A stretch of DNA of 64,000 nucleotides from Deltaproteobacteria bacterium (GTDB taxonomy: Bacteria > Desulfobacterota > GWC2-55-46). Below the pieces are notes generated by a model that made no database searches, was not told where the DNA came from, and was given only the letters and a program-made list of their open reading frames with translations. The DNA lies in NCBI GenBank assembly GCA_015075075.1, contig JABTVA010000008.1, positions 50,215-114,214 of the forward strand, read 5' to 3'. Shown piece after piece: positions 11,068-60,066 of the stretch (the stretch's first letter is position 1; each line of letters opens with the position of its first letter). The position numbers and the translations under genes are program-made.

Positions 11068-12729
11068 ATGGGAGAGCCCCTTAAGATAATCCCGCTCGGC
11101 GGGCTGGGCGAGATAGGCCTTAACATGATGGCCATCGAGTACGGCGACTCCATAATGGTCGTGGACTGCGGCCTCATGTTCCCCGAGGACTACATGCTCG
11201 GGATAGACATCGTCATCCCGGACGTGAGCTATCTTAAGAAGAACGCCGAAAAGGTAAAGGCCTACATAATAACCCACGGCCACGAGGACCACACCGGCGC
11301 CCTGCCTTTCATCCTGCCCCAGGTCGACGCGCCTATATACGGCACCGCCCTCACCATAGGTCTCATAGAGGAAAAGCTCGAGGAGTTCGGACTCGCCAAA
11401 TCGACATTATTCGAGACGGTCCGCCCGAGGGACAGGGTATCCATAGGGCCCTTTGATATAGAATTCATACGCGTCAGCCACTCGATAGTGGACGGCTGCG
11501 GCCTTGCCATAAGGACGCCCGTGGGCACCGTTATCCATACCGGGGACTTCAAGATGGACCAGACCCCGGTGGACGGAGAGGTAATGGACTACGCCCGGTT
11601 CTCGGAATACGGTGAATCCGGGGTGCTCCTTCTCATGTCGGACTCGACGAACGTCGAAAAGGAGGGCTATTCCCTTTCCGAGCGCGAGATAGGGAAAAAC
11701 CTCGAGGAGATATTCAGGAGGTGCGAGGGCAGGATAATAGTCGCCGCCTTCTCCTCCAACATACACCGCATCCAGCAGGTCATGGAAGCCGCCGCAAGGC
11801 ACGGGCGCAGAGTGATACTCAACGGCAAGAGCATGGTCGCCAACGTGCGGATAGCGCACGCCCTCGGGTATCTCAAGTACCCGGAAGGGCTCATGGCCGA
11901 CTTGAAGGAAATAGACTCGATACCCCACGACCAGGTCGTGCTCCTCACTACCGGGAGCCAGGGCGAGCCCATGAGCGCCCTTACCCGCATGGCAATGGAC
12001 AACCACAAGCAGATAAAGGTAAGGAAGGGCGATACCGTCATCCTTTCCTCCAAGTTCATACCCGGCCACGAGAAGGCCATATCCACCATGATGAACCACC
12101 TCTACAGGAGAGGCGCTGACGTCATATACGAGAAGGTCTCGGAGGTGCACGTCTCCGGGCACGCGAGCCAGGAGGAGCTTAAGATAATGCTCAACATGGT
12201 GCGCCCGAAATACTTTATCCCGGTGCACGGCGAGTACAGGCACCTGGTCCTCCATTCGAGGCTCGCCGCGAGGATCGGCATACCTGAAGAGAACGTAATA
12301 ATAGCCGAGGACGGGGACGTGGTCGAGTTCGCCCCTGAAGGCGGGTTCGTGAAGGCCGGGAAGGTCGAGTCCGGGAGGGTATTCGTTGACGGCAAGGGCG
12401 TGGGAGACGTGGGCGAGATGGTATTGAAGGACAGGAACCACCTGGCCCAGGACGGCATGGTGCTCGCCCTCGTTGCCATAAACGCCACGACCGGCGACAT
12501 GGTCTACGGCCCCGAGATAGTGACCCGCGGGCTTGTGCTCGAAGAGGGCAGGCCCGGCCTCATCGAGGAAGCCCGGAAGGTGGTCATAGAGTCGCTCAAC
12601 AGCCTCAATGCCGAGGTAAAGACCGAGCAGCTCGAGATAAAGGAAGAGGTGAGGAGGGCGCTACGCCGTTACTTCAACAGGACGTTGGAGCGGAAACCCG
12701 TCATACTCCCGATGATAATCGAGATATAG
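11068..12729 (+). CDS. rnj: Ribonuclease J (metallo-beta-lactamase/beta-CASP RNase)
   Basis: 553 aa with the 'HGHEDHTGALP' MBL motif and beta-CASP C-terminal domain. Length and motifs are typical of RNase J. Confidence 0.85.
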   Translation: MGEPLKIIPLGGLGEIGLNMMAIEYGDSIMVVDCGLMFPEDYMLGIDIVIPDVSYLKKNAEKVKAYIITHGHEDHTGALPFILPQVDAPIYGTALTIGLIEEKLEEFGLAKSTLFETVRPRDRVSIGPFDIEFIRVSHSIVDGCGLAIRTPVGTVIHTGDFKMDQTPVDGEVMDYARFSEYGESGVLLLMSDSTNVEKEGYSLSEREIGKNLEEIFRRCEGRIIVAAFSSNIHRIQQVMEAAARHGRRVILNGKSMVANVRIAHALGYLKYPEGLMADLKEIDSIPHDQVVLLTTGSQGEPMSALTRMAMDNHKQIKVRKGDTVILSSKFIPGHEKAISTMMNHLYRRGADVIYEKVSEVHVSGHASQEELKIMLNMVRPKYFIPVHGEYRHLVLHSRLAARIGIPEENVIIAEDGDVVEFAPEGGFVKAGKVESGRVFVDGKGVGDVGEMVLKDRNHLAQDGMVLALVAINATTGDMVYGPEIVTRGLVLEEGRPGLIEEARKVVIESLNSLNAEVKTEQLEIKEEVRRALRRYFNRTLERKPVILPMIIEI

Positions 12730-12860
12730 GCTGCTGCTCAAAAAATCCATCTGCGTCGAAGGCTACGTCGCTGGACACTCCGGCGTACGCGAAAAGTACG
12801 CCTCGTTCCTTGCTCCCCTGTTCCTAATGGGGCCTCGCATCCGGAGCTTTTTGAGCAGCC
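12729..12860. mobile_element. MITE-like element, family C (TIR GGCTGCTCAAAAA / TTTTTGAGCAGCC)
   Basis: Terminal inverted repeats. Homologous copies at 24033, 31811, 35350 and 56511. Its 3' end is read through by the artificial N-terminal extension of the next ORF. Confidence 0.7.
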
Positions 12861-12913
12861 TAAGCGAATTTTGTATTTTCCCGCAACCTGTTGGCCGAAG
12901 GGTTTTTATTGAG

Positions 12914-14017
12914 ATGAGCTCGAAAGTCTACTTCGCGGACCTGAGGACCACCCCCAAAAGAAACCTACATAACAAGCTCGACTCCCTCCTTGAGAACGTA
13001 GGCATAAGGGAGAGGTTCAGGAAAGGGCACCTTGTCGCCCTTAAGCTCCATTTCGGGGAAAAGGGCAACGCCTCCTACGTGAGGCCCGTTTTCGTAAGGC
13101 GGATCGTCGAGCGCGTAAGGGAGACAGGCGGAAACCCCTTTCTTACCGACACAAACACCCTTTACGTAGGCACCAGGGGCAACACGGTAGACCACCTGAG
13201 GACCGCCGTCGAGAACGGCTTCGATTTCGCCGTGGTCTCAGCCCCCCTCGTCATAGCCGACGGCTTAAGGGGAGCCTCCGGGACGCCGATAAGGGTAGGG
13301 GGGAAGCACCTCAGGGAAGTAAGCATAGCGAGCGAGATAGTCGCCGCCGACGGGCTCGTGGCGGTGACCCATTTCAAATGCCACGAGCTTTCCGGCTTCG
13401 GGGGCGCGTTGAAGAACGTCGGCATGGGGTGCGCAAGCCGCGAGGGGAAGCTCGCGCAGCACTCGAACTGCTCCCCGATCGTAGACCCCGGAGGCTGCGT
13501 TGCCTGCGGCGACTGCGCCGCCGCGTGCCCCTCGGGGGCCATAACGGTCGGGACCGCCGCAGTCATAGACAAGGAGGCCTGCATAGGATGCGGCCACTGC
13601 ATCGCCGTTTGCCCGGAGGGTACGATAAAGGTAAGCTGGGACGAGTCGTCCGGGAGGCTCCAGGAGAAGATGGTCGAGCACTTCGAGGGGGCCGTCAAGG
13701 GGAAGTCTGGCAGGTGCGTATATATCTCATTCGTGACCCAGGTGAGCCCGGCCTGCGACTGCTACGGCCATAACGACGCCCCCATAGTGCCGGACGCCGG
13801 GGTGCTGGCCTCGATTGACCCGGTGGCCATAGACCAGGCCGCTGCGGACATCGTAAACGGGATGGAAGGGTTCAGGGGGAGCGCCTTAAGGAGCGGGCAC
13901 GGGCCGGGTGGCGACAAGTTCAGGGGGGTCCACCCTTCCGTAGACTGGGAAGTGCAGCTGTCATACGCCGAGGAGAGGGGCCTCGGGTCGAGGGATTACT
14001 CCCTTGTTAAAATCTGA
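12914..14017 (+). CDS. DUF362 domain protein with 2x[4Fe-4S] ferredoxin domain
   Basis: DUF362-like N-region followed by 'CVACGDCAAACP' and 'CIGCGHCIAVCP' cluster motifs. Start was moved to the ATG at 12914, downstream of the MITE-derived extension. Confidence 0.7.
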   Translation: MSSKVYFADLRTTPKRNLHNKLDSLLENVGIRERFRKGHLVALKLHFGEKGNASYVRPVFVRRIVERVRETGGNPFLTDTNTLYVGTRGNTVDHLRTAVENGFDFAVVSAPLVIADGLRGASGTPIRVGGKHLREVSIASEIVAADGLVAVTHFKCHELSGFGGALKNVGMGCASREGKLAQHSNCSPIVDPGGCVACGDCAAACPSGAITVGTAAVIDKEACIGCGHCIAVCPEGTIKVSWDESSGRLQEKMVEHFEGAVKGKSGRCVYISFVTQVSPACDCYGHNDAPIVPDAGVLASIDPVAIDQAAADIVNGMEGFRGSALRSGHGPGGDKFRGVHPSVDWEVQLSYAEERGLGSRDYSLVKI

Positions 14018-14053
14018 TATCATGGGTTTGGCGGTAAGCCGGACGGAGCGGAT

Positions 14054-15921
14054 ATGGCGGTAAAGAAGATAGGCGAGCTCCTGGTCGAATCAGGGCTCAT
14101 AATGAGGACCAGCTCGAAGAGGCCCTTGCCGCGGGCAAGGAGAACAAGGGCACCAGGACAGGCGCCCTGCTCGTAAAGCTCGGGTACGCAACGGAGATTG
14201 ACATAGCCCAGACCCTCTCCTACCAGGTCGGCATCCCCTTCGTGGATATGGCTTCCACGACCGTGGACCCGGAGAGCATCAAGCTGGTCAACGAAAAGCT
14301 CGCCAGGAAGTACCTCCTTGTGCCGCTCTACCATGACAAGAAGGTCCTGAGGGTCGCCATGTCGGACCCGCTGAACCTGAACGCCATAGACGACCTGAGG
14401 TTTTCGACGGGCTTGGAGATACAGCCCTTCATCTCCACGCTCTCGGACATCAACGCCGCGATATCGAGGCACTATCACCTGAACGAGCCCATGATGGACG
14501 AGATACTGGGCGATTTCAAGAAGGACAGGTACGTCGAGGTATTCCACGAGTCCGAATCGAGCAGGGACCTTTCCGAGCAGGTAAAGAAGTCCGCCGCCCC
14601 GCCCATCATAAAGATGGTCGATTCCATCCTGATACACGGCTTCGACAACAGGGCGAGCGACATCCACATCGAGCCGCAGGAAAAGGGCGTGAAGCTCAGG
14701 ATACGGGTGGACGGGCTCATGCGCGAAACCAAGCAGCTCCCCAAATGGGTGCAGGGGCCTGTCGTTTCGAGGATAAAGATAATGGCCCGGATGGACATAG
14801 CCGAGAGGAGGACGGCCCAGGACGGCAGGTTCAAGGTGCGGATAGGGGAAAAGAGCATGGACGTGAGGGTCTCGTCGCTCCCGACCCAGCACGGCGAGAC
14901 GATAGTCATGCGGCTCCTCGACCCCAAGGCCGCCATGATAGACATAGAGGGCATAGGGATAGGAAAGGGTGAGCTCGACCGGGTGCTTGATATCATAGAG
15001 CGCCCCCAGGGGGTCGTGCTCGTCACCGGCCCCACTGGCTCGGGAAAGACCTCGACCCTTTACGCCATGCTCGCCCGCATAAAAAAGGAAGAGATAAACA
15101 TAATCACGATAGAGGACCCGATAGAGTACGAGCTCAAGGACGTAAACCAGGTGGCCGTGAACGACAAGACCGGCCTGACCTTCTCGTACACCCTGAGGTC
15201 GGTACTACGGCAGGACCCGGACGTCATACTCGTCGGCGAGATGAGGGACGCGGAGACGGCCACGATCGCCCACCAGGCCTCCCTTACGGGGCACCTTGTC
15301 TTCTCGACCCTGCACACAAACGACGCGGTATCATCGGTAACGAGGCTCCGTAACCTCGGCGTGCCTTCGTACATGATAGCGTCGGCCCTGAACGGCATAG
15401 TGGCCCAGAGGCTCGTGAGGATGATATGCAAGGGGTGCAGGGAGGAGTACACGCCGACCGGGCAGGAGATACGGAAGGCTGGGCTCAAGTGGTCCGGGAA
15501 GAAGCTCTACAGGGGCGCGGGATGCAGCCTCTGCGCCAATACCGGCTACTCGGGGAGGACCGGGATATTCGAGATAATATCGGTAAACGGCGCGATAAAG
15601 AACCTCATAGCCGCCGACGCCCCCGAGCACGAGATAATCGCCGCCGCCCTGGAAGGCGGCATGACCCCCATGCACATGGACGGGCTCGATAAGGTCTCTT
15701 CCGGCATAACCACGCTCGAAGAGCTCGCTCGGGTCATATACATGGCCAAGGAACCGGTATGCCCGGTTTGCCTTAAGACCGTACCGGCCGGTACGGAGAG
15801 ATGCGGCGAATGCGAAGCTGCCAAGGCCGCCGTCTGTCAATGGTGCGGGAAGGGACGGGAGGAGGGCTGGGTAGCGTGCCCCTGGTGCGCGCACGAGTTC
15901 GCCGCCGCCCCGCTATCATGA
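14054..15921 (+). CDS. MshE/GspE/PilB-family secretion ATPase with N-terminal c-di-GMP-binding MshEN-type domain and extra C-terminal double zinc ribbon; apparent -1 frameshift near 14100
   Basis: Walker A 'VLVTGPTGSGKTSTL' and the canonical tetracysteine 'CKGCREEY...CSLCANTGY'. Upstream, in another frame, 'MAVKKIGELLVESGLI|TEDQLEEAL...LVKLGYATEIDIAQTLSYQ' matches the MshEN motifs. The intact ORF starts at 14242. The C-terminus adds 'CPVCLK...CGECEA...CQWC...CPWCAHEF'. Confidence 0.75.
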
Positions 15922-16055
15922 TGTTGAAAAGCACTTCCTGGACTTTTTCAATCACGGCTTGGCCGGAATAATCCGTCCAAGCCCCGCAAAATGCTCGACC
16001 TTGGACAGTCTTCGCAATTTGGCATCCATCCGTGGATTGCATATCAGGATGTTTT
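15922..16055. repeat. Structured repeat element, family E (copy 1), abutting the stop codon of the ATPase gene
   Basis: About 135 bp with nested inverted repeats (TTGAAAAAGTCC...GGACTTTTTCAA; GGCTTGG...CCAAGCC; GTTGAAAAA...TTTTTCAAC). A second copy at 52580 is about 85% identical. Confidence 0.75.
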
Positions 16056-16213
16056 TCAACACCCTGATAAAGTCCTGATGAGGCCTGCTCCTTTTCGGGG
16101 CTTTCCCTTTTTCCTGCTATCCTGATTTCCATGAGCCAGGCTTTTTTTGGTTTGCGGAAAAGTTCCACTTGTGATATATTCCGGCAATCCACTATGTGAG
16201 CGAGTTCAGGCGG

Positions 16214-16252
16214 GGGCCTTCCCCGAAGGTACCCCCTCGTTTTTAATGCTTC
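16214..16252 (+). terminator. Possible intrinsic terminator
   Basis: GC-rich imperfect hairpin 'GGGGGCCTT...AAGGTACCCCC' followed by 'TCGTTTTTA'. Confidence 0.3.
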
Positions 16253-16276
16253 TTGTTCTGAATCCTCTGCCCTGAG

Positions 16277-16846
16277 ATGCTGAAATCCTCGCTGACCATA
16301 GCGCTCTTTGCCTTGGCTTGCATGCCGGGCTCCGCAATCGGGGAATTCTTTTCAATGGACCCGGCCCCTGCGGACAGGCCGTTCCTGGAACAAAAGAGGA
16401 AGCCGGGCGATATTAAGAAGGACAAGTACGGCCTCCCGGACCCCACTCCAGACGTAATCTCCCTTACGCACCTTCCAAAGGACCGATACGGCTTCGTAGA
16501 CTGGGCCGAGGCCATCTCCACGGGCGTAATCTCGCCGAAATCGTCGATCGACGGCTTGCCCGCAAGGCTCTCTCCCGTTGACAGGGAGAGGTTCGACGGG
16601 GACGTCCTCATAAGGTCCGGGAAGGAATTCATGCCGGACGTGCTCTTCCCGCATTCGGCCCACAACGAGTGGCTCAAGTGCTCCACCTGCCACCCCCGCA
16701 TATTCTCGAAGAAGGCCGGCGCGAGCCGCATTACGATGACGGGGATATGGAAGGGCAGGTTCTGCGGCGTATGCCATGACAAGGTGGCCTTTCCGACGAG
16801 GAACTGCTTCAAATGCCATTCGGTTCGGAAGGACGCGGGGAAATAG
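16277..16846 (+). CDS. Periplasmic triheme c-type cytochrome
   Basis: Signal peptide 'MLKSSLTIALFALACMPGSA'. Three CxxCH motifs (CSTCH, CGVCH, CFKCH). Confidence 0.75.
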   Translation: MLKSSLTIALFALACMPGSAIGEFFSMDPAPADRPFLEQKRKPGDIKKDKYGLPDPTPDVISLTHLPKDRYGFVDWAEAISTGVISPKSSIDGLPARLSPVDRERFDGDVLIRSGKEFMPDVLFPHSAHNEWLKCSTCHPRIFSKKAGASRITMTGIWKGRFCGVCHDKVAFPTRNCFKCHSVRKDAGK

Positions 16847-16869
16847 CATGTATTGTCCAGAGGAACAAC

Positions 16870-18200: not shown

Positions 18201-18239
18201 GATCCATGCAAGGAGCTCGGTCTTCTGTCCGCGCATAGT

Positions 18240-19719: not shown

Positions 19720-19737
19720 TGTCGACTTAAAAGGCCT

Positions 19738-19880
19738 TTGTTGTCATTGCGGAGCTTTGGCTCGAAGCAATCTCAAATGCCCGATATTCCAAAAAATGAG
19801 AGTGCTTCCCGCCACGCTTCGCTCGCGGCTTCGGCTCACACGCTCGCAATGACGAATATGCGAATCAGTCAGAGCTTCCT
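19738..19880. mobile_element. MITE-like element, family B (degenerate copy)
   Basis: Shares the core 'TTGTCATTGC...GATTGCTTCCCGCCACGCTTCGCTCGCGGCTTCGGCTCACACGCTCGCAATGACGAA' with the copy at 22226. The right TIR is degenerate ('GAATCAGTCAGAGCTTCC'). Confidence 0.65.
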
Positions 19881-19912
19881 TAACTTGGTGCTCTTAAGAA
19901 GAGTCGGCCTGT

Positions 19913-22114: not shown

Positions 22115-22225
22115 TTTCCTTTTCCTGGAGAAATGTCGCGCTTCTGATTGACGGGTTGAGGTCTTTCCAGGCTGCTATCCCGTTCCGGGCAGCCTGGCAT
22201 CCCGCCGCGGGAATGGGCTGGTTTA

Positions 22226-22398
22226 GGGAAGGTCTGATTAATTCTGTTTTCTGTTGTCATTGCTTAGGAGCTAAAGCTACGAAGCAATCTCTAAGTGCTT
22301 GATTTTCCAAAAGATAAGATTGCTTCCCGCCACGCTTCGCTCGCGGCTTCGGCTCACACGCTCGCAATGACGAACACATTGAATTAATCAGAGCTTCC
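22226..22398. mobile_element. MITE-like element, family B (TIR GGAAG(G/C)TCTGATTAATTC)
   Basis: About 18-bp TIRs enclose an internal hairpin (ATTGCTTAGGAGC / GCTACGAAGCAAT). It lies in the same orientation as the copy at 19738; the two flank the kinase gene. Confidence 0.7.
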
Positions 22399-22544
22399 TT
22401 AGTTTTGATTTTTATTCCAAAATTCCGGCTTTTCGCGCGTAATCGGAATATTTGCCCGCCCGTCCTGTATACCAGCCTGGCCCTCGGTAGAGCCGGGCAG
22501 AAGGCCTGAACTAAATATTCTGTATTTCTCGGCTTTCGTCAAGC

Positions 22545-22572: not shown

Positions 22573-22620
22573 CAACATAATGCGTTTTAACCCGCCTGAA
22601 ATAAGGAAGGAGAGCGTATT

Positions 22621-24029: not shown

Positions 24030-24032
24030 ACA

Positions 24033-24300
24033 GGCTGCTGAAAAAGCCCAATCTGCTGTGTCGTCTTCAAAGTTGGACACTCCGGCGTACAAGAAAAGTA
24101 CGCCTCATTCCTAAGGAAGCTCTGATTAATTCAATGTGTCGTCATTGCGAGCGAAGTTGAAACAATCTTATCTTTGGAAAATCAAGCATTAGAGATTGCT
24201 TCGGAGCTAAAGCTCCTAAGCAATGACAACAGAAAACAGAATTAATCAGACCTTCCCTAATTTTTCGACTCCTTGCATCTTGAGCTTTTTGAGCAGCCTG
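24033..24300. mobile_element. MITE family C copy interrupted by a nested family B MITE (24120-24251)
   Basis: Left part 24033-24119 and right part 24252-24300 match the intact C copies. The inserted B element carries TIRs 'GGAAGCTCTGATTAATTC / GAATTAATCAGACCTTCC'. Confidence 0.75.
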
Positions 24301-24380
24301 AATGTGGGTTTTTGAAGTAATCTTTTAAAGCCCAAGCCGGTTCTGATTTCTGTCCGTCCATCAAGGCCGGGAGGCCTGCC

Positions 24381-31808: not shown

Positions 31809-31810
31809 CG

Positions 31811-31958
31811 GGCTGCTGAAAAAGCCCAATCTGCTGTGTCGTCTTCAAAATTCGTCATTGCAGCGTACAAAAAAGTACGCCTCATTCCTCATTTTTCGAC
31901 TCCTTGCATCTTGGACTTTTTGAGCAGCCTGGATGTGATTTTTGAGTTTTTCAGCAAT
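31811..31958. mobile_element. MITE family C (intact copy)
   Basis: TIR GGCTGCTGAAAAAG...CTTTTTGAGCAGCC, plus the conserved tail GAGTTTTTCAGCAATCT. Confidence 0.75.
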
Positions 31959-31985
31959 CTTTAGATAGCCGTGGGCGGGATATAG

Positions 31986-32124
31986 GCAACCCTGAAAATT
32001 GATCTTTTCCCCGGACTCTGCGTCAGTCCGGGAATAAAAATGCTCACATATTATCCATATATGCTCCGCTTTTTATTCCCGGCCTTCCGGGAAAAGCGGG
32101 AAATCTCTAATTTTTAAGGTTGCC
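31986..32124. mobile_element. MITE family D (TIR GGCAACCYCTAAA / TTTARAGGTTGCC)
   Basis: About 140 bp. Core 'TTTTCCCCGGACTCTGCG...GGGAATAAAAATGCTCACATATT...ATATGCTCCGCTTTTTATTCCCGGCCTTCCGGGAAAAGCGGGAAA'. Four copies in the window. Confidence 0.75.
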
Positions 32125-32140
32125 TACATGGTATCCAGAG

Positions 32141-32199
32141 CCTTGCATCTTGGACTTTTTGAGCAGCCTGGATGTGGTTTTGAGTTTTTCAGCAATCTG
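32141..32199. mobile_element. Partial MITE family C (3' half)
   Basis: Matches the 3' terminal ~60 bp of C copies. Confidence 0.6.
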
Positions 32200-35347: not shown

Positions 35348-35349
35348 CA

Positions 35350-35495
35350 GGCTGCTCAAAACGCCCTTGAATGCGTCGTCTTCAAATTGGCAACTCCGGC
35401 GTACAGGAAAGTACGACTCATTCCTCATTTTTCGACCCCTTGCATCTTGGACTTTTTGAGCAGCCTGAACGTGCCATGAGTTTTTCAGCAACCTG
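35350..35495. mobile_element. MITE family C
   Basis: TIRs GGCTGCTCAAAA...CTTTTTGAGCAGCC and the tail GAGTTTTTCAGCAACCT. Confidence 0.7.
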
Positions 35496-37320: not shown

Positions 37321-37689
37321 GCCTTGCGCTTGACAAGCGGCTCCAAGCCGGGTAGGGTGGACACAGCCCACCATTTCTCTGAGGTACAGGGCGACAGAAG
37401 AATCTCGTATTCAAGCCTCGTCGAAAAAGACCTTATAACGCGCTGCCGCGCTCTTTTTGGGCATGAGGCTCCGCGCCCTTTCCGCCTCCATCCTCCGGGC
37501 TCGGCCCTTAAGTCGCTCGGCCTTCGGCCTCGCTCCTAACAGCCCCGCCTCGCCCGCCCCGCCCCCATCCCCATGTTCGCTCCGCCTCATGCCCCCGGGG
37601 TTGTTTAAAAACAAACCAGCGCCTTCCTTGAGCTTGACAAGCGGCTCATGGAAATGCAATCATCATCCTGGAAATAGAAATGACATGTC

Positions 37690-37845
37690 CTGGTCAAGGG
37701 AATCCCGTGATCCGCCTGGGTGCGGAGAATCGGGAACGGACCCGCCACTGTGAGCGGATACGAAACCCGCACGAGCCACTGGCCTTAAGGCCGGGAAGGC
37801 GCGGGGAGTAGGTTGTTAATCCGCAAGTCAGGAGACCTGCCAGGA
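37690..37845 (+). promoter_or_regulatory. Cobalamin (AdoCbl) riboswitch
   Basis: 'AAGGGAATCCCGTGATCCGCCTGGGTGCGGAGAATCGGGAACGGACCCGCCACTGTGAGCGG' matches the 5' consensus, including the GCCACTG core. The B12 box 'AAGTCAGGAGACCTGCC' lies at 37825-37841. Confidence 0.8.
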
Positions 37846-37911
37846 TATGCCTCACGGATCTTCGATGGTAAAGAAGGTGAGGGCGGTTGCACTGGTTTTT
37901 CGAGTCTCCGC

Positions 37912-39050: not shown

Positions 39051-39067
39051 CTGAAATACGGTTGTTT

Positions 39068-39351
39068 GCAACCTCTAAAAATTGCTATTTTCCCCGGACT
39101 CTGCGTAGTGCGGGAATAAAAATGCTCACATATTCAAAATATATGCTCCGCTTTTTATTCCCGCCTTTCCGGGAAAAGCGGGAAAAATCTCTAAGGAACC
39201 TCTGATTAATTCATGTGTTCGTCATTGCGAGCGAAGCGAAGCAATCTTATCTTTTGGAAAATCAAGCGCTTAGAGATTGCTTCGGAGCTGAAGCTCCGCA
39301 ACGACAAGAAACGAGAATTAATCAGAGCTTCTCTAATTTTTAGAGGTCGCC
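39068..39351. mobile_element. MITE family D with a nested family B MITE (39200-39327)
   Basis: Left D TIR 'GCAACCTCTAAAAATT' at 39068 and right D TIR 'TTTTTAGAGGTCGCC' at 39337-39351. The B element 'CTCTGATTAATTC...GAATTAATCAGAG' is inserted just before the right TIR. Confidence 0.75.
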
Positions 39352-42704: not shown

Positions 42705-43776
42705 GCTCAGGAAAGGGTATACGACAGGGACTTGCGCCGCTGCCGGGGCAAAGGCAGCGGCGCTCTTGCTTCTGGGCGGCCTGAGGCCGGGACACGTGGA
42801 TGTGCCGCTGCCGCGCGGCGGGATCTTGAGGGTGCCGGTAAAGTCGGTTGCCGGCGGAAAGGGTTTTGCGAGGGCCGTAATAGTGAAAGACGCCGGCGAC
42901 GACCCGGATGTGACGGACAAGGCCGAGTTCGTGGCCGAGGTCGAGATGCTCGGCGAGAACGCCAGGCGCGCGTCCGTAAGGGTGAGGGGCGGTAAGGGGG
43001 TAGGGGTCGTTACGAAACCCGGGCTAAAGGTCAGGCCCGGAAAACCCGCCATAAACCCCGTGCCGCTTTCGATGATACGGAAGGCGGTAAGGGAAGCTGC
43101 GGCCCGTTATCATAAGAAGGCGTCCTTCCTCGTGACCATATCCGTGCCGCTTGGAGCAGAGCTTGCCGCCAGGACCATGAACCCCAGGCTCGTCATCGTC
43201 GGCGGCATCTCGATTTTAGGCACTACCGGCATAGTCGAGCCCATGTCCCTTGCCGCGTACACCCATTCCATCTCGTGCGGCGTGAGCGTGGCCGTGGCAA
43301 GCGGACTTCAAGATGTGGTGTTCTCGACCGGCCGGTCGAGCGAAAAGGCCGTGGAGAAAAGGCTCAAGGTCCCGGAGGCGGCCTGCGTACTTACAGGCGA
43401 CCACATGGGCTATGCGCTCAGGGACGCGGCCACGAGGCCGGAAATAAAAAAGGTGGTCGTCGCCGGCCAGTTCGGGAAATTCACCAAGCTCGCCGCTGGG
43501 CGCTTCGAGACGCACTGCGACGACGCGCCCATAGAGCTCGATTTCCTGGCCGGGCTTTGCGAAAGGCTCGGCGCAGGGAAGGCGCTGGCCGGGCGGATAA
43601 GAGAGGCAAATACCGCGAGGCATGCGTTTTTCATGCTAAAGGAAAGCGGCCTTGAGAAGGCGCTGGACGAGGTCTCTATCCTGGTGAAAAGGAATGCGGA
43701 AAGGATACTCGGCAAGGGGAAGTCCGTGACCGCGGTCCTCGTCGGGTATGACGGGGACATAGCTTCGATAAGATGA
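42691..43776 (+). CDS. cbiD: Cobalt-precorrin-5B (C1)-methyltransferase
   Basis: 'LRKGYTTGTCAAAGAKAA' N-terminal signature. Length and order fit CbiD. Confidence 0.85.
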   Translation: MPGRKLRKGYTTGTCAAAGAKAAALLLLGGLRPGHVDVPLPRGGILRVPVKSVAGGKGFARAVIVKDAGDDPDVTDKAEFVAEVEMLGENARRASVRVRGGKGVGVVTKPGLKVRPGKPAINPVPLSMIRKAVREAAARYHKKASFLVTISVPLGAELAARTMNPRLVIVGGISILGTTGIVEPMSLAAYTHSISCGVSVAVASGLQDVVFSTGRSSEKAVEKRLKVPEAACVLTGDHMGYALRDAATRPEIKKVVVAGQFGKFTKLAAGRFETHCDDAPIELDFLAGLCERLGAGKALAGRIREANTARHAFFMLKESGLEKALDEVSILVKRNAERILGKGKSVTAVLVGYDGDIASIR

Positions 43777-51166: not shown

Positions 51167-51208
51167 TCCACTTCCTATAATTGTATTTCCATACAAAGGT
51201 AAACGAAG

Positions 51209-52585
51209 ATGTTGAAGGAAGGCAGCATCAGCCTCGACAGGCAGGGGCGCATAATAAGGTTCAGCAACAGCCTCGAGGAGATGCTCGGCTACTCGCCGGA
51301 CGAGGTGATGGGAAGGGAGTTCTCCATCTTTGTCCCGCCAGGAGCGGAATCCCCTGTAGAGGCCTTTCTCAGCGGCCCCGAGGAGGAGCCGCACCACGCG
51401 TCCAGGAAGACCGGCATACTCCGGAAGGACGGGACTCTCTCCGAGCCGTACATGTCAATACACCCTTTGAGGGACCGCACGGGCGCGCTCTATTCCGTCC
51501 TCCTTACGCTCTCTGTCAGGAAGAGCGGCCTTCCTGCCTTCCTTACCGAGGAGTTCAGGCGCATATTCAAGTTCTCCAACGACGGGGTCGCCATAACCGA
51601 CCGGGACGGCTCGATAATAGACGTAAACCCCGCTTTCCTCGAGACCTACGGCTATCAAAGGCACGAGGTCCTTGGAAAGAACCCGAGGATACTCAAGTCC
51701 TGCCATTCCACAAGGGACCTCTATGAGAGGATGTGGCAGGACATACTCGACCCCGCGAAAGGCTTCTGGAGGGGCGAGATAATCAACATGGCGCGGGACG
51801 GCTCCGAGGTGCCGGTGCTCCTTTCGATAAACGCGATAAAGGACGAGCACGGGGATATAAGGAACTTCCTCGGCATAACCTTCAACATGACGAGGGAGAA
51901 AAAGCTCGAGAAGCTCCGGAAGATGTACATCGACCATATCGTCCATGACATAAGGGGCCCTCTTACCTCGATATCCATAAATTCCGAGCTCCTACTCATG
52001 GGCCAGGAGCTTCCTGAAAAGGCCAGGAAGAAGCTGGACGTTATCCTCTCCTCGGCCCAGAGGATAGAGTCCATGACCTCCGACATACTCGATTTCAGCA
52101 GGGCCGAGAACGGGAAGCTCGTTTTGAGGAGGGAGGCCGTAATGCTCTCGGAAACAGTCAGGGACGCGGCCCTTCCTTTCGAGGGCTCGGGGAAGAAGCT
52201 CCTCGTCAATGGCGCGCCCATGTCCGACGGGGCCCTCGATTTCGAGGTCTTCGCGGACGAGGACAAGCTGAGGAGGGTCATATACAACCTCTTGAGCAAT
52301 GCCTTCAAGCACGCCTCCGAAATCGTGGACATCTCGGCCGAGGCCGGCGCCGAGGGCCTCAGGTTCACGGTCTGGAACGACGGGAGGGGCATTGCCCAGG
52401 AGGAGGCGGAAAGGATCTTCGACGCCTTCTTCCAGACCGCCGAAGGCGTAAAGACCGGCGGGGCAGGGCTGGGCCTTAGCATCGTCAAGAGCTTTGTAGA
52501 GGCCCACGGCGGAAGGGTCTGGGTCGAGGCCGGAAAAGAGAGGGGAGTTACCTTCGGCTTCACGATACCTTTAGCAGGATGTTGA
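51209..52585 (+). CDS. Cytoplasmic PAS-PAS sensor histidine kinase
   Basis: Two PAS segments, H-box 'HDIRGPLTSISINSELL', and N/G boxes 'YNLLSNAFKHA' and 'GGAGLGLSIVK'. No TM helices. Confidence 0.85.
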   Translation: MLKEGSISLDRQGRIIRFSNSLEEMLGYSPDEVMGREFSIFVPPGAESPVEAFLSGPEEEPHHASRKTGILRKDGTLSEPYMSIHPLRDRTGALYSVLLTLSVRKSGLPAFLTEEFRRIFKFSNDGVAITDRDGSIIDVNPAFLETYGYQRHEVLGKNPRILKSCHSTRDLYERMWQDILDPAKGFWRGEIINMARDGSEVPVLLSINAIKDEHGDIRNFLGITFNMTREKKLEKLRKMYIDHIVHDIRGPLTSISINSELLLMGQELPEKARKKLDVILSSAQRIESMTSDILDFSRAENGKLVLRREAVMLSETVRDAALPFEGSGKKLLVNGAPMSDGALDFEVFADEDKLRRVIYNLLSNAFKHASEIVDISAEAGAEGLRFTVWNDGRGIAQEEAERIFDAFFQTAEGVKTGGAGLGLSIVKSFVEAHGGRVWVEAGKERGVTFGFTIPLAGC

Positions 52586-52715
52586 AAAAGTCCTTCCTGG
52601 ACTTTTTCAACCACGGCTTGGCCGGAATGAATACGACCAAGCCTTGCAAATTGCCCGACTTGAATAGTCTTCGCAATTTGGCAAATCCATCCGTGGTTGC
52701 CTGACAGGATGTTTT
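52580..52715. repeat. Structured repeat element, family E (copy 2); supplies the TGA stop of the kinase gene
   Basis: About 85% identical to the copy at 15922, with the same nested inverted repeats. Confidence 0.75.
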
Positions 52716-52849
52716 TCGACACCCTGTTAGAGGGGGCGAGCTTAAGCGCGCCTTGACTCTTACGCATCCTCCGTGTTAACATTTTTTACCGAAGGGCCGG
52801 TTTCTCTCTCAATATAGGCCCCGGGTATTAGATTTCCTAAAATCAAATA

Positions 52850-53005
52850 GAAACGATCTCCGAGCCATCCTGCCTAAAGCCGGTCCTTTTCATGGCCGCG
52901 CAACGGGGGGTGGCCGATAGGGCCCTGCTGGAAACGGTTTGGCCTCCCCACTGGAAAGGAGATTGACAGTGCCAACCCCTTTCCGTGGCGGTTGGTTTTT
53001 TTTTG
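52850..53005 (+). promoter_or_regulatory. Molybdenum-cofactor (Moco) riboswitch-like leader with terminator
   Basis: 'CTCCGAGCCATCCTGCC..AAAGCCGG...GGAAACGG...GGCCTCCCCACTGGAAAGGAGA' matches hallmark blocks of the Moco RNA motif. It is followed by hairpin 'CCAACC...GGTTGG' plus T9, immediately upstream of modABC. Confidence 0.55.
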
Positions 53006-53023
53006 CTTACTGAGGGGCGTGCC

Positions 53024-54448: not shown

Positions 54449-54449
54449 G

Positions 54450-55460
54450 ATGCTGGACATATCCCTGAGAAAAAGGCTCCCCGGCTTCAATGTGGAGGTG
54501 GACCTCTCCGTGGACGAGGAGCTCCTTGTGCTCTTCGGCCCGTCCGGCGCCGGAAAGAGCCTGGTACTCAAGATGATATCCGGCATCGTCGAGCCTGACG
54601 CGGGCCGGGTGGCTGTTGCCAACGAAACGCTCTTCGATTCGGGCATTGGCGTAAACCTCCCCATGAGGATGAGGAAGGTAGGGCACCTCTTCCAGGACTA
54701 CGCGCTTTTCCCGCACATGACCGTATCGGAGAACATAGCCTACGGCATAGGGGGCGGGAACAAGGACGAGGCCCGTAAGAAGGTAGGGGAGCTCATTACC
54801 GTGATGAGGCTTTCGGGGCTTGAAAAGAGGTACCCGCAGGAGCTTTCGGGCGGGCAGAAGCAGAGGACCGCCCTTGCGAGGACCCTTGCGGCAGGGCCCA
54901 GGGTACTCCTCCTTGACGAGCCCTTCTCGGCCCTCGATTATCAGGTCAGGGAAAAGCTCAGGGCCGACCTCCTCAATATCCACCGCATCTACCCGATTAC
55001 GACCGTACTCGTAACGCACGACCTCGAAGAGGCCTTCATGCTGGGCAAAAGGATAGCGGTCATAAATAACGGGACTATCGAGCAGGCCGGCACCCAGGAG
55101 GACGTCTTCTACAGGCCCCTTACGAGGAACGTGGCCCGGTTCATGGGCGTGCGTAATATCTTCTCAGGAAAAGTTGCCGCCCTGGAAGGGGCGCACCTCG
55201 TCATAGACAACCCGGACATAGGCATGGTCAAGGCCCCATTGCCGCCCGGCCCGGCCTTGAGCCCCGGGACTGAAGTCTCTTTCTGCATACGCCCCGAGGA
55301 GATACTCGTCATTAGGCCCGACAGGGTGCTCGGGAAGGTCCAGGACAACATACTGGAATGCATGATAACGGGCACTGTCGGCAGGGGCCTGACCACATAC
55401 TCTACCTGGACGGCAGGAGGGCAGTACCGCCAAAGGCGGAGCTTCCAATTTTGTGCTTAG
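54450..55460 (+). CDS. modC: Molybdate ABC transporter ATPase with C-terminal TOBE-like domain
   Basis: Walker A 'GPSGAGKS', signature 'LSGGQKQR', Walker B 'LLLDEPF'. The last ~25 aa may be frame-disturbed. Confidence 0.8.
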   Translation: MLDISLRKRLPGFNVEVDLSVDEELLVLFGPSGAGKSLVLKMISGIVEPDAGRVAVANETLFDSGIGVNLPMRMRKVGHLFQDYALFPHMTVSENIAYGIGGGNKDEARKKVGELITVMRLSGLEKRYPQELSGGQKQRTALARTLAAGPRVLLLDEPFSALDYQVREKLRADLLNIHRIYPITTVLVTHDLEEAFMLGKRIAVINNGTIEQAGTQEDVFYRPLTRNVARFMGVRNIFSGKVAALEGAHLVIDNPDIGMVKAPLPPGPALSPGTEVSFCIRPEEILVIRPDRVLGKVQDNILECMITGTVGRGLTTYSTWTAGGQYRQRRSFQFCA

Positions 55461-55543
55461 AAAACTTGGACGTGCGGCCAGCGTATCAGTTGTTGAAAAA
55501 GGAGAATATTTGGGTAATAAGATAAAACCCTGAAAAGGTTTCA

Positions 55544-56491
55544 ATGGACACACACCGGCACGACACTCACGGGCATGAGGTTGAAGCCGACTCCGGCCTC
55601 AAAAGGCGCCTCCTCGTATCCATAACGCTTACGAGCGTAATCTTCATTGCCGAGCTCATAGGCGGTTTCCTTACGAACTCGCTCGCCCTCATGACCGACG
55701 CGGCGCACGTCTTCATGGACGTCTTCGCGCTTTCGCTCTCCCTATTCGCCATATACATAGCCGAGCTTCCGCCGACCGAGAAAAGGACCTACGGCTTCCA
55801 CAGGGTCGAGGTCTTCGTGTCGTTCATAAATAGCTTCGTCCTCGTCCTCATAACCGCCTTCATCTTCTACAAGGGCTTCCTCCGGTTCTTCAACCCCGAG
55901 CCGGTCGAGAGCGCCGGGGTGCTCATCGTGGGCTCCATAGGCCTGGTCGTTAACCTGATGGTCGCGAAATGGCTGCACGGCCACGCAAAGTCCGACCTGA
56001 ACGTCAGGAGCGCCTTCATACACGTCGTGGGCGACGCTGCGGCCTCGGTGGGAGTCATAATCTCGGCTGTCGTAATATATTATACTGGATGGTATCCCAT
56101 CGACCCGCTCATAAGCATGGCCATCTGCGCGCTTATCATAAACGGGGCGGTTAAGATAATAAGGGAGTCCTCGCACATACTCCTTGAGGGTGTGCCGAGG
56201 GAGATAGATTTCGGGAGGGTCAGGGACGACATACTCTCGCCCGAGGGCGTAACAGGCGTGCACAGCCTGCACATCTGGTCAATATGCCACAACGTCTACG
56301 CCCTTAGCGCGCACGTGGACATAATCCCGACCCAGAGGTGGAGGATGGGGGAGATATTCAGCGAGATAAACGAGAAGCTCGCGCATGACCACCATATCTT
56401 CTACACCACCCTGCAGGCCGAATGCTCAGGATGCGAGCCGAATGACATATTCCGGAAGATAGCCCACAGGGGGCGCGGACACCTGCATTGA
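55544..56491 (+). CDS. Cation diffusion facilitator family transporter (CzcD/ZitB-like)
   Basis: N-terminal His-rich 'HRHDTHGHE', about 6 TM with 'HVFMD' and 'HVVGD' metal sites, and a C-terminal cytoplasmic domain. Confidence 0.8.
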   Translation: MDTHRHDTHGHEVEADSGLKRRLLVSITLTSVIFIAELIGGFLTNSLALMTDAAHVFMDVFALSLSLFAIYIAELPPTEKRTYGFHRVEVFVSFINSFVLVLITAFIFYKGFLRFFNPEPVESAGVLIVGSIGLVVNLMVAKWLHGHAKSDLNVRSAFIHVVGDAAASVGVIISAVVIYYTGWYPIDPLISMAICALIINGAVKIIRESSHILLEGVPREIDFGRVRDDILSPEGVTGVHSLHIWSICHNVYALSAHVDIIPTQRWRMGEIFSEINEKLAHDHHIFYTTLQAECSGCEPNDIFRKIAHRGRGHLH

Positions 56492-56497
56492 CGTGCG

Positions 56498-56781
56498 GCA
56501 ACCTCTAACAGGCTGCTGAAAAAGTCGTTCTCCGTCGAAGGCTACGTCGCTCGTCACTGCGGCGTACAAGAAAAGTACGCCTCATTCCTCGCTCCTCGAC
56601 GCCTCGCATCTGGAGCTTTTTGAGCAGCCTGAACAAAAACGGAGTTTTTCAGCAAGCTGCCAAGAAAGGATCTTTTCCCCGGACTCTGCTTCGGGCCGGG
56701 AATAAAATGCTATATGCTCCGTTTTTTATTCCCGGCCTTCCGGGAAAAGCGGGAAAAATCTCTGATTTTTTAGAGGTTGCC
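56498..56781. mobile_element. MITE family D with a nested family C MITE (56511-56658)
   Basis: D left TIR 'GGCAACCTCTAACA' at 56498. Directly followed by C 'GGCTGCTGAAAAAG...GAGTTTTTCAGCAAGCTG'. The D body then runs to the right TIR 'TTTTTAGAGGTTGCC' at 56781. Confidence 0.7.
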
Positions 56782-56833
56782 GCCTTATGATATAATTGAA
56801 TGCAGGCCCACAATTCCAGCCCAGGGGGGTGCC

Positions 56834-59277
56834 ATGCCCAGAGAGAAGCGGTTGCCGGTCGAAGAGCTCGCCTGGAGGTGCAGCCCCGAGAGGTTCTCCT
56901 TCGCGACTACTAACGAGCTCGCGTCCCTCCAGGAGATAATAGGCCAGGACAGGGCGCTCCGCTCCATCCAGTTCGGCCTCGGAATAACAAACCACAACTA
57001 TAACATCTTCGTCCTGGGCGACACAGGGGTGGGGAAATCCACCTCGATAAAGGAGATCATAGAGGCCAGGGCCAAGGGCGAGCCCGTGCCGGACGATTGG
57101 TGCTATGTCTTCAACTTCGAGGACGTGGACACGCCGACGGCCATAAGCCTGCCGCCCGGCAGGGGCGCCGACTTCGCCGCCGAAATGGACGAGCTCGTGG
57201 AGACGCTGCTGCGCGACATACCCAAAGTCTTCGAGTCAAAGGACTACGAGAAGCACAGGGACGAGATAATCGAGGGGCAGCAGGAACGGACGAGGTCTCT
57301 CTTTTTCAGGCTCGAGCAGAGGGCCATGGAAAGGGGGCTCGTCCTCAAGAAGACCGTTAGCGGCTTAGCGGTAGTGCCTGCCAAGAACGGCAAGCCCATG
57401 AGCCAGGAGGAGTTCGAGTCCCTGCCGCCAGAGCGGAGGGCCATGATAGAGCAGGACCTGGCCGTCATGCAGGACAAGCTCTCGGACGCCGTCAGGGAGG
57501 CCCGGAACATAGAGAAGGAGACCAAGGAGCGGATAAACGCCCTCGACAGGGAGGTCGTCCAATACGTGGTGAACCCCGCGATAAACGAGCTCCTCGATAA
57601 GTTCAAGGAGTTCAAGGGGGTTGTGGACTACCTCTACAAGGTCAAGGAGAATATCCTGAATAACATCGACGACTTCAGGCCCAAGGAGGAGGTCCCGCTC
57701 GCCATCGGGGGCCTCCGGCTCCAGAAGCCCGAGCCCTCCTTCGAGCGCTACAAGGTGAACCTCTTCGTCGGCAACAGGGAGTCCGAGGGCGCGCCTGTCG
57801 TGTACGAGTCCAACCCCACATACACCAACCTCTTCGGGAGGATCGAGTACAAGGTGCAGCTCGGGGCCGCCACCACCGACTTCACCATGGTAAAGCCCGG
57901 GAGCGTGCACAAGGCAAACGGCGGCTATCTCATCGTCAACGCCCTTGACATACTACGGAACATATTCGTATACGATTCTCTGAAGAGGATGATAAAGAAC
58001 AGGGAGGCGCGCATAGAGGACCCGTGGGAGCAGTACAGGATCGTATCCGCCACGACTTTAAAGCCGGCGCCCATCCCCGTGAACATAAAGCTCGTCATCA
58101 TAGGCGAGCCGTTCATCTACTACCTCCTCTACAACCTCGATACCGAATACAGGAAGTCTTCAAGGTCAAGGCCGACTTCGATACCGTCATGCCGAGGACC
58201 GACGCGAATATCGAGAAGTACGCGTATCATCGCCACCTGGTGCAGGAGGAGGGGCTCATACCCTTCGACAGGACCGGTGTGGGAAAGGTCGTGGAGTTCG
58301 GCGCGCGGCTTGCCGGCGACAGGGAGAAGCTCTCGGCCAGATTTAACGAGGTGACGAACATCATCGTGGAGGCGAGCTACTGGGCCGGTGTCGAGGGGTC
58401 CGGGACCGTCTCGGCCTCGCACGTGGAGAAGGCCGATTCAGAGCGGGTCTACAGGAACTCGAAGTTATCCGATGGAGCCCGACTACATAAGGGAAGATAC
58501 GCTTATGGTCGCCACCGTTGGAAAGATGGCTGCAGGTGAACGGCCTTGCCATCCTCGACCTGGGCGACTACGCCTTCGGCAAGCCTTCGAGGGTAACGGC
58601 CAGGGTCTTCATGGGAGATGCCGGGGTCGTCAACATAGAGCGGGAAGTGAAGATGAGCGGCCGCATACACAACAAGGCCCTCATGATATTCACGAGCTTT
58701 CTGGGCGAGAGGTTCGCCCAGAGTTCCTCTCACCCTCTCGGCGTCCATAACCTTCGAGCAGCTTTATGGAGGATAGAGGGCGACAGCGCGACATGCACGG
58801 AGATATCGCTCCTTATTTCGCCTCTGGCGTGCCTCTGACCAGGACATAGCGGTAACCGGCTCAATGAACCAGCGGGGCGAGGTCCAGCCCATAGCGGCGT
58901 GAACGAGAAGATAGGCGATTTTCGAGATATAAGCGCTGGCGGGCTCACCGGCGGACGGGGTCATAATACCCAGAAGGAACGTCAAGAACCTGATGTCAGA
59001 GGAGGTAATATAGAGGGCAGCGACGGCAAGTTCGCGATATACCCCATAGAGCACGTTGACGAGGGTCTCGAGATATTGACCGGCATGCCGGTCGGGGAAA
59101 GGGACGAGAAGGGAGGCTTCCCTGAGGGGAGCGTGAACCGGCTTGTCGAGGCGAGGCTGGGTCGCCGCTAAGAGCTTCAAGGAGTTCGGAAGGCCCCCGC
59201 CAAAGGAACTGGCCGGCGGCGGAATGGGAGAGGCCGCGAAGGGCACGGACAAGAAGGACGGGAAGGACGGGAAATAA
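56834..59277 (+). pseudogene. Lon-like AAA+ protease (LonB/LonC-type), C-terminal half disrupted by >=6 frameshifts
   Basis: Intact N-part to ~58150 has Walker A 'VLGDTGVGKST'. Downstream Lon S16 blocks are scattered over three frames, e.g. 'LAILDLGDYAFGKPSRVTARVFMGDAGVVNIEREVKMSGRIHNKALMI' and 'PLTQDIAVTGSMNQRGEVQPI'. Confidence 0.6.
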
Positions 59278-59281
59278 GAAG

Positions 59282-59900
59282 ATGCTGGTCTATGAGATAT
59301 TCAAGAGTATCCAGGGGGAGTCGGCCGGCGCTGGCTCCCTGTGTTTTCATAAGGCTTGCGGGCTGCAACCTCGGGTGCAGGTGGTGCGACACCCCTTACG
59401 CCAGGGTCCCTGACGGCGAATGAGCTTCGATAGACGAGGTCATGAGGAGGTTACGCCTACGGGACTGCAGGCTGGTCGAGATAACGGGGCGCCGCTCCAG
59501 GAGGAGACGAAAGAGCTGGCCCGATGCTCGCAGGACAGGGGCGGACCGTGCTCATGGAGACCAACGGCTCCGTGCCGGTCTCAGGCCTCGACGAGAGGGT
59601 CATAAAGATAGTCGATGTGAAGTGCCCGTCCAGCGGGCACGCCGGCTCCTTTCTCCTGAAAACCTCTCCCACATAACCCCGGAGGACGAGGTAAAGCTCG
59701 TGGTCGCGGACAGGGGCGACTACGACTGGGCCAAGGAGTTCATTGAAGAGGTGCTAGGGAAGGAACCGAAAAGTGCTTTTGCGCCCGTGAGGCCCCGATC
59801 TAATCCCAGTGACCCGCCGCCTGATACTTAGGACGGCTGCGGGTCAGTCAGCTCCAGCCCATTCCCACATATGGCCGGAAGAGCGCGGCAGGGCTTTACT
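59282..59900 (+). pseudogene. queE: 7-carboxy-7-deazaguanine synthase, multiply frameshifted
   Basis: '[13 protein letters not shown]..' continues in other frames as '[21 protein letters not shown]', 'VEITGGEP.LQEETKELARCSQDRG' and 'VLMETNGSVPVSGLDERVIKIVDVKCPSSGHAG'. Confidence 0.55.
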
Positions 59901-59930
59901 TTCGGCCTCAATCTGTAAAATCCCTGATAT

Positions 59931-60066
59931 GGCAACCTCTAAAGTGATCTTTTCCCCGGATCTCTTAGTCAGGCCGGAAATAAAATGCTCACATATTGTC
60001 ATATATGCTCCGCTTTTATTCGGCCTTCCTCGATTGTGAGGAAAATCTCCAATTTTAGAGGTTGCC
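59931..60066. mobile_element. MITE family D (intact, perfect TIRs GGCAACCTCTAAA / TTTAGAGGTTGCC)
   Basis: Perfect 13-bp TIRs. The body is homologous to the other D copies. Confidence 0.8.

Follow-up and report, generated by a model that had tools for sequence, protein, structure and literature searches.

A 64 kb stretch of DNA from a Deltaproteobacteria bacterium (assembly GCA_015075075.1, contig JABTVA010000008.1, positions 50,215 to 114,214), referred to below as the window, holds genes for RNase J, the ATPase of a type II secretion system (T2SS-E), RadC, PAS-domain histidine kinases, an epimerase, an SPM-domain protein, cobalamin biosynthesis (cbi genes), a cation-efflux protein and a LonB-like protein. 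Lodged next to these genes are 16 copies or fragments of short repeats belonging to four families: B with four copies, C with six (one of them partial), D with four plus a remnant, and E with two. Together these families make up 3.5% of the window (∼2.3 kb). [quoted passage not shown] The initial annotation of this DNA had already called them MITE-like, and that reading agrees with their terminal inverted repeats (TIRs), their 4-bp target-site duplications, the empty and filled alleles in related genomes, and the matching insertion sequence (IS) elements that exist elsewhere. It had also announced at least five families: the four that it listed, B to E, were all found, and its count of five was not matched by its own list.

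The inventory (Table 1) was compiled from a repeat scan of the window, site-by-site reading, a motif scan and a BLAST search of the window with the elements at low stringency. Families B to E are the main non-genic repeats that the repeat scan recovered. Their length is 136-172 bp when nested inserts are set aside, and the copies are 79-91% alike within families. All the copies first listed for these families are present at, or a few bases away from, the coordinates then given; the one placed at 19738 does have B sequence, and it is a truncated B that sits next to a remnant of D rather than a complete copy. The repeats are real and far above chance. Compared with dinucleotide shuffles of the window, the TIR motif of C and E is observed 12 times versus 0.05 expected, that of B seven times versus 0.05, and that of D seven times versus 0.31.

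All four families are bounded by TIRs of 16-18 nt and fall into three TIR classes: B, C together with E, and D. Family B (∼140-170 bp) has GGAAGGTCTGATTAATTC at both ends. Family C (∼150 bp) begins with the left TIR CAGGCTGCTGAAAAAG, meets a first inverted copy of it ∼110 nt in, and then a third copy, again inverted (GTTTTTCAGCAAYCTG), 12 nt past the first inverted one. Which of the two inverted copies is the end of the element? The answer comes from C6, which is nested in D3: the host D sequence restarts only past the third, outer copy, so that C truly ends there. The element had been closed at the first inverted copy, and runs 27 nt further than that. As for family E, it had been considered structured rather than TIR-bounded, a view that no longer holds: it starts with the left TIR CAGGATGTTGAAAAAG, followed immediately by an inverted copy, and its right end reads GTTTTTCRACACCCTG, so that the TIR pair is CAGGATGTTGAAAAAG and the reverse complement of CAGGGTGTYGAAAAAC, accompanied by a TTAG duplication. 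E has the plan of C with a slightly different motif, belongs to the same TIR class (CAGGNTGYTGAAAAAG) and is a sister of C. Finally, family D (∼140 bp) is a long imperfect palindrome with the ends GGCAACCTCTAAAAATTG.

Copies of B, C, and E are flanked by 4-bp duplications of the YTAR type, verified against the empty alleles of relatives, while for D there is one allele with a clean 4-bp duplication, TTCA, in the relative designated L399; the other D copies match at 1-3 of the 4 positions, and the duplication is not YTAR. A 2-bp duplication was considered for D and ruled out by this clean empty allele, which displays 4 bp. The same signature is found where elements lie within each other, and all three nested events that had been proposed (B in C, B in D, and C in D) carry a 4-bp duplication of the sequence of the host element. 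B3 in C2 is bracketed by CTAA on both sides, at a place where intact C copies have a single CTCA, reading CATTCCTCATTTTTCG; B4 in D2 has CTAA on both sides, and intact D copies hold one CTAA; C6 in D3 has CTAA on one side and CCAA on the other.

Evidence for insertion also comes from related genomes, in which homologues of two anchor genes, that for RNase J being one of them, gave access to the syntenic loci. The RNase J encoded in the window has an identical counterpart in two metagenome-assembled genomes (MAGs), GCA_048500075.1 and GCA_023384475.1, each 99.76% identical to the window across 21.6 kb. Two public MAGs of the same species as the window, L001 and L002, are independent assemblies and contain the same insertions. 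The relatives used for the comparison of alleles have 78-92% nucleotide identity: L123, the complete 2.75 Mb genome CP129479.1 of a "Thermodesulfobacteriota bacterium" (∼91% identical to the window); L125, L126 and L399, from the "Desulfobacterota UBA5799" lineage (∼88%); L127 and L128, from LVEI03 (∼78%); and L400, a Logan contig syntenic with the window. In BLAST, alignments between the window and these relatives stop precisely at the element boundaries with an overlap of 4-5 nt, which is the signature of a target duplication, and occupancy varies at no fewer than nine sites among five related genomes.

Several of these sites can be read base by base. B2 is missing in L123, where the precise empty site GGTT-TTGG-TCTTG corresponds to GGTT-TTAG-(B)-TTAG-TTTTG in the window. 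C1 is missing in L125 and L126, in which the spacer between RNase J and the next gene is ∼20 nt, and is present in diverged form in L123; L127 has, at the RNase J stop codon, a C of another subfamily, a sign of an independent hit. The site of E1 is empty in L125 (reading CTTTAAGTCC) and in L127, and L123 has a truncated E1. Conversely, L123 carries a C at ∼10100, flanked as TTAT-(C)-TTAC, for which the window has the empty TTGC, and L399 contains an extra D, with its TTCA duplication, between cbiD and the gene that follows it, a site that is empty in the window (43763-43766) and in L400. The site of C5 is empty in L399 and L400, both with a bare TTAA/TTTAA stop region. Compared with these relatives, B4, C5, and C3 are confined to the lineage of the window.

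In which order did the families arrive? In the spacer that separates cbiM from the cbiX/cbiC fusion gene, L400 is empty (30 nt), L399 has D alone (92% identical to D2, and B4 is missing from this orthologous D), and the window has D plus B; hence D came first and B later, at the CTAA of D. D1 also has an orthologue in L399, at 90% identity, so that its insertion is older than the split from the L399 lineage; the values for D1 and D2 against L399 (90-92%) are near the level of the flanking DNA. D is never nested in another element, C and B occur within D, and B occurs within C. The nesting hierarchy, together with the order at the cbi site across relatives, bears out the earlier proposal of successive waves of transposition and supports D as the oldest wave, after which C and then B would have spread, at times into older copies. 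With identities of 79-91% within families, no wave looks very recent. Families B, C, and D are also found together in the related MAG contig L031.

Some sites have a more complicated history. On either side of C3 lies not a 4-bp duplication but a 23-bp direct repeat of the gene end (AGATAGCCGTGGGCGGGATATAG). In L399 the corresponding site (31.8-32.2 kb of the window) consists of the gene end, directly followed by D, a spacer and an empty TTAG; in the window, the order is gene end, full C, the 23-bp gene-end repeat, D, a shortened spacer, a partial C of 60 nt (C4) and TTAG. C4 and the right end of C3 are 97% identical, and the junctions have TAG and AGA microhomologies in common. It can be envisaged from this comparison that C inserted first at TTAG, and that a replication-type rearrangement accompanied by deletion later placed a copy of it upstream; the copies at 31811 and 32141, once counted as two insertions, point to a local rearrangement instead of a second transposition. 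Another such site is the spacer between RadC and the histidine kinase, now occupied by D and a long B variant in L123, by D with a nested C in L125, and by a 17-nt remnant of D and a truncated B in the window. The B of L123 is an orthologous insertion, at the same TTAA as B1, and L125 has no B there. In the common ancestor this spacer held D, and deletion has reshaped it since.

These two sites raise the question of whether much of the pattern could stem from a few ancestral insertions that were duplicated and recombined locally, or even from artefacts of MAG assembly. The near identity of C3 and C4 over their common 60 nt, the gene-end repeat with its junction microhomologies, and the deletions between RadC and the kinase are what one would cite in favor of it. 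The other copies are instead at unrelated loci, each with its own 4-bp duplication and with the within-family identity given above, and the insertions vary site by site among relatives; in addition, the same structures are present in the independent assemblies L001, L002 and the window, which argues against an artefact. As an explanation for much of the pattern, local duplication or misassembly is considered very improbable.

If the repeats are MITEs, where are the transposases that move them? The absence of a transposase from the window, noted from the start, is confirmed by tblastn with the B- and C-type transposases described below, which detected no transposase remnant in the window or in ∼190 kb of relatives. 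Matching elements had to be sought elsewhere, with IS5 as one of three candidate families proposed at the outset, and IS5-family elements with the same TIRs and YTAR duplications were found for both B and C/E.

For B, a scan of the TIR through one genome per species in many phyla returned at least 119 loci. Among the matches listed, many of the TIR pairs are ∼100-300 bp apart, and at least seven span 1166-1218 bp, in Nitrospira and in one Latescibacterota MAG. The two long elements examined, L032 and L119, each contain one open reading frame (ORF) of 321-330 aa that matches the NCBIfam model NF033581 (IS5 family) at 365 and 337 bits (cutoff 140) along with the Pfam domains DUF772 and DDE_Tnp_1. 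This is the IS5 group, that of the E. coli IS5 type, and the B TIR matches the ends of these 1.17-1.22 kb elements without a difference over 18-23 nt. It starts with GGAAGGT, as IS5 ends do, and the 4-bp duplication of B, CTAA/TTAG, is the classical YTAR target of IS5. IS5-family copies carried by enterobacterial and Cupriavidus plasmids align with the Nitrospira B-type element at 68-70% nucleotide identity. In contrast to these elements, B is 140-170 bp long, has no transposase gene, and has a core unrelated to the sampled IS interiors. Full-length homologues of B itself occur at no fewer than ∼20 loci, in "Deltaproteobacteria" groundwater and Rifle MAGs.

As for C, metagenomes were scanned with TAA plus the TIR as the query, which yielded at least 120 loci. 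These include at least ∼65 MITE-sized pairs with varied cores and TTAA, CTAA or TTAG duplications, at least ∼20 copies that have the three-TIR plan and belong to family C proper, and no fewer than eight elements of 1285-1361 bp that encode transposases of 358-390 aa. Two of these transposases were scanned (363 and 368 aa) and match NF033581 at 264 and 261 bits, again with a cutoff of 140, with DUF772 and DDE_Tnp_1. They represent a second IS5-family clade, with elements of ∼1.3 kb ending in CAGGCTGCTGAAAAAG, members of which are annotated as "IS5 family transposase" on plasmids of Methylocella tundrae (NZ_LR536452.1, 182365-183655) and Sinorhizobium meliloti (pSymA). The Methylocella element begins with CAGGCTGCTGAAAAAC and lies between two copies of its CTAG duplication, and the Sinorhizobium TIR, CAGGCTGTTGAAAAAG, is intermediate between the C and E types. 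Families C and E have the 16-nt TIR of this clade (0-3 mismatches to the consensus in most copies) and its CTAG/CTAA/TTAG duplication; they differ in being ∼150 bp long and in having an internal inverted third copy of the TIR, 12 nt inside the right end in C and right after the left TIR in E, whereas the full-length IS has no third copy. IS701, initially entertained for C/E, was dropped once the transposases found proved to be of the IS5 family (NF033581). The B-type and C-type transposases are a mere 25% identical. When viral contigs were scanned with the bare C TIR, most of the matches were single and due to chance, and five further MITEs with TTAA/CTAA duplications came out; two long TIR "pairs" from these contigs, L154 and L215, enclose ordinary phage genes and are not IS elements.

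B and C/E would then each depend on a different clade of IS5-family DDE transposases for mobilisation in trans; these enzymes would recognise termini of 16-23 nt, cut at a YTAR tetranucleotide and duplicate it, and an active partner may be present in this genome now. D would be a further MITE of ∼140 bp with a 4-bp, non-YTAR duplication. In terms of classification, B, C, and E represent two IS5-family TIR classes widespread in environmental bacteria, and D is an orphan MITE: no partner for it was found in 3 Mb of gathered loci, in a plasmid collection searched by BLAST, or in the viral-contig scan.

A number of points count against this explanation. The orphan state of D is the first, given that an autonomous partner is absent from all three sources, and its duplication consists of one clean allele and two matches at 3 of 4 positions, with unclear flanks in two window copies (GTGC/GCCT and ATAT/ATGA). 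The resemblance of the MITEs to the sampled IS elements is confined to the terminal 16-23 nt, so that direct descent by internal deletion does not follow, and the sources of the cognate elements are other phyla or metagenome contigs that are unbinned. A standard IS5 insertion does not account for the 23-bp repeat around C3. Lastly, the copies are 79-91% alike, and recent activity is thus not demonstrated.

Short, intergenic, palindromic and abundant sequences that often follow gene ends also recall the repetitive extragenic palindromic (REP) sequences and bacterial interspersed mosaic elements (BIMEs), which are moved by a RAYT transposase of the IS200/IS605-like, HUH type. The elements of the window are 140-170 bp long, compared with ∼20-40 bp for a REP, their 16-23 nt TIRs are identical to the ends of DDE IS5-family elements, and 4-bp target duplications are not made by HUH transposition. 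No RAYT gene turned up in the window, where no systematic search for one was made, and an origin of this kind is extremely improbable.

MITEs have also been described in other bacteria. The Correia elements of Neisseria are small and TIR-bounded, with short duplications, copies at gene ends and some truncated copies. Correia and RUP elements use a TA target; their TIRs are unrelated to those of families B to E, their parent IS families or targets differ, and none of their members has a match in the window. Core and TIR strings used in a literature search gave chance primer matches only. [quoted passage not shown] By that partial description, which is the sole basis of the comparison and carries no claim of a sequence relationship, Chunjie is like the window MITEs in plan and in coming from a related anaerobic host group. 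The repeats are new families of a well-documented, ordinary genome parasite, here in an uncultured sulfate-reducer-like bacterium, and no new mechanism is involved.

Table 1. Copies and fragments of families B to E in the 64 kb window, with their flanks
Copy	Family	Position	Strand	Remarks
C1	C	12730-12889	+	begins at the TAG stop of RNase J; tip of left TIR degenerate
E1	E	15917-16066	+	3' end of T2SS-E ATPase gene, whose TGA is within the mutated left TIR; duplication ATAA
D remnant	D	19721-19737 (approx.)	+	left end TGTCGACTTAAAAGG; residue of a deletion
B1	B	19738-19879	+	5'-truncated; right TIR alone remains, then TTAA
B2	B	22227-22398	+	full length, 172 bp; divergent region upstream of PAS histidine kinase
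B2 duplications		22223-22226 and 22399-22402		TTAG at both; read from the sequence
C2	C	24031-24323	+	holds nested B3; flanks TTTA/TTTA
B3	B	24115-24256	-	nested in C2; CTAA at 24111-24114 and 24257-24260
C3	C	31809-31962	+	abuts TAG stop of epimerase gene
D1	D	31985-32124	+	orthologue in L399
C4	C, partial	32140-32199	+	right 60 nt only, then TTAG
C5	C	35348-35495	+	at stop of SPM-domain gene; CTGA/CTAA, the left copy still being the stop
D2	D	39067-39351	+	holds nested B4; spacer between cbiX/cbiC fusion gene and cbiM
B4	B	39195-39332	-	nested in D2; CTAA at 39191-39194 and 39333-39336
E2	E	52575-52726	+	3' end of PAS histidine-kinase gene; TGA stop at 52583-52585 in left TIR; TTAG on both flanks
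D3	D	56497-56781	+	holds nested C6; 6 nt past stop of cation-efflux gene
C6	C	56509-56659	+	nested in D3 at the CTAA of D; CTAA/CCAA
D4	D	59931-60066	+	located by motif and by BLAST against the window

The relationship of the elements with the neighboring genes deserves attention, in particular their proximity to stop codons. Of the eight C and E copies, five are in contact with one: the stops of the RNase J, epimerase and SPM-domain genes come immediately before a C element, while the genes for the T2SS-E ATPase and a PAS histidine kinase each end at a TGA inside the TIR of an E element. The YTAR tetranucleotide holds TAA or TAG, and the C/E TIR has a TGA eight bases in, in another frame, so that a gene reading into either end of C/E is stopped in two of three frames. 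Insertion on or just inside stop codons would be tolerated for this reason, and such tolerance may be the cause of the frequent placement of the copies at gene 3' ends and in operon spacers. Among the MITEs from metagenomes, the TAR of the duplication is the stop of an open frame of at least 80 aa in 31 out of 65 cases, and a crude baseline gives 28.5%; this ∼1.7-fold excess over a crude baseline is modest and should be taken as a lead only. Elements on both flanks of a histidine kinase, as first described, are borne out by the gene calls and the copy positions. An element was also said to occupy the 5' leader of cbiMN, and this needs correction: D2 is intercistronic, downstream of a cobalamin riboswitch (37674-37858) and of the cbiX/cbiC gene.

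Might the elements be conserved structured RNAs (terminators, attenuators, mRNA-stabilising hairpins or small RNAs) that are kept for their function and spread by recombination? All 12 C, D, and E copies of the window have the orientation of the flanking genes, most copies stand directly after stop codons, and all fold into long hairpins, as they do by construction. The orientation bias does not generalise: in family C copies on metagenome contigs, genes end at the single-TIR end in 13 cases and at the double-TIR end in 6, a difference that is not significant, and genes are seen to end at both sides of the element. A further argument for function is a promoter-like match at 56769-56796, upstream of the LonB-like gene, which fits at 10 of 12 positions with an extended TG and takes its -35 (TTTAGA) from the right TIR of D3 and its -10 (TATAAT) from the flank; it is a single case among the D copies. 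No terminator-like site lies within any element in the window, and with one promoter-like match and no terminator-like site, a role of the elements as terminators or promoters was set aside. Identification as known structured RNAs had been named as the outcome that would overturn the MITE reading, and no family of Rfam 15 matches any element at its gathering score; permissive scans of B, C, D, and E gave sub-threshold chance hairpins of eukaryotic families. Moreover, orthologous sites are empty in close relatives with the neighboring genes unchanged, and insertion by a transposase is what the 4-bp duplications indicate, as do the full-length IS elements that match. Functional RNAs are accordingly rated as very improbable, and transposition by IS5-family enzymes is retained for B, C, and E.

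A bolder idea combines both aspects. The C/E-type IS5 MITEs could be elements built for stop codons, near-harmless at gene 3' ends, and could thereby spread into the very short spacers of a compact genome (∼2.75 Mb), including those of riboswitch-controlled and other operons; the co-orientation of the 12 C, D, and E copies would reflect not chance but selection at the RNA level, e.g., on 3'-end hairpins with an effect on mRNA stability or translational coupling. This idea is speculative and, on balance, doubtful.

The elements have practical consequences. In the annotation of this Desulfobacterota/Thermodesulfobacteriota lineage, they account for long "intergenic" spacers, spurious ORF calls and altered gene 3' ends. 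Their occupancy differs between genomes that are ∼90% identical, and makes them markers for dating the divergence of strains. Furthermore, two TIR classes that are widespread in the environment are now tied to specific IS5-family clades.

Other observations were made along the way. The core of B carries a hairpin module, GTCATTGCGAG...GAAGCAATC, which is also present without B-type TIRs in two unrelated metagenome contigs, L330 (∼3908) and L366 (minus strand, ∼7973); strings similar to it give common spurious peptides in MAG annotations. It may be a separate, more widespread unit caught between IS5-type ends. In L045 (99-1483), an IS110-family element with an ORF of 349 aa (DEDD_Tnp_IS110 and Transposase_20) interrupts a family B MITE that has ∼88% identity to the copies of the window; this contig is binned as Woesearchaeota, probably by mis-binning.

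Two riboswitches lie in the window, both outside the elements, and they are its only Rfam matches. The cobalamin riboswitch mentioned above (108 bits) stands ahead of the cbiX/C-cbiMNQO-cbiD operon, and a molybdenum cofactor (Moco)/tungsten riboswitch (52846-52977, 58.5 bits) is found ∼120 nt downstream of E2. Upstream of the former there is an insertion of ∼290 nt (37346-37640) that is missing in L399 and L400. On both sides it has a direct repeat of ∼25 nt (CTTGAGC..GCTTGACAAGCGGCTC) that holds the -35 TTGACA of the promoter upstream of this riboswitch, and the insert is GC-rich with one 11-nt inverted repeat, no TIR, and no other copy in the gathered sequences. Together with C3, it makes two cases of an insert with a long flanking duplication.

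Between positions 1066 and 22696, the alignment of the window with L001 and L002 shows only 10 substitutions in 21.7 kb, compared with 34-35 gap openings, an excess of gaps that suggests homopolymer or indel errors in one assembly and not real divergence. A quorum-sensing cluster of the LuxI/LuxR type at ∼16.8-18.9 kb (L001 15804-17740), made up of an autoinducer synthase and two autoinducer-binding/GerE regulators, adjoins a cytochrome c7 gene and is kept in all relatives. On the minus strand at 3098-10090, four tandem paralogous TPR-repeat genes follow one another with a period of ∼1.8 kb and are 63-83% identical; L001 has four of them, L123 three, L125 two and L127 one.

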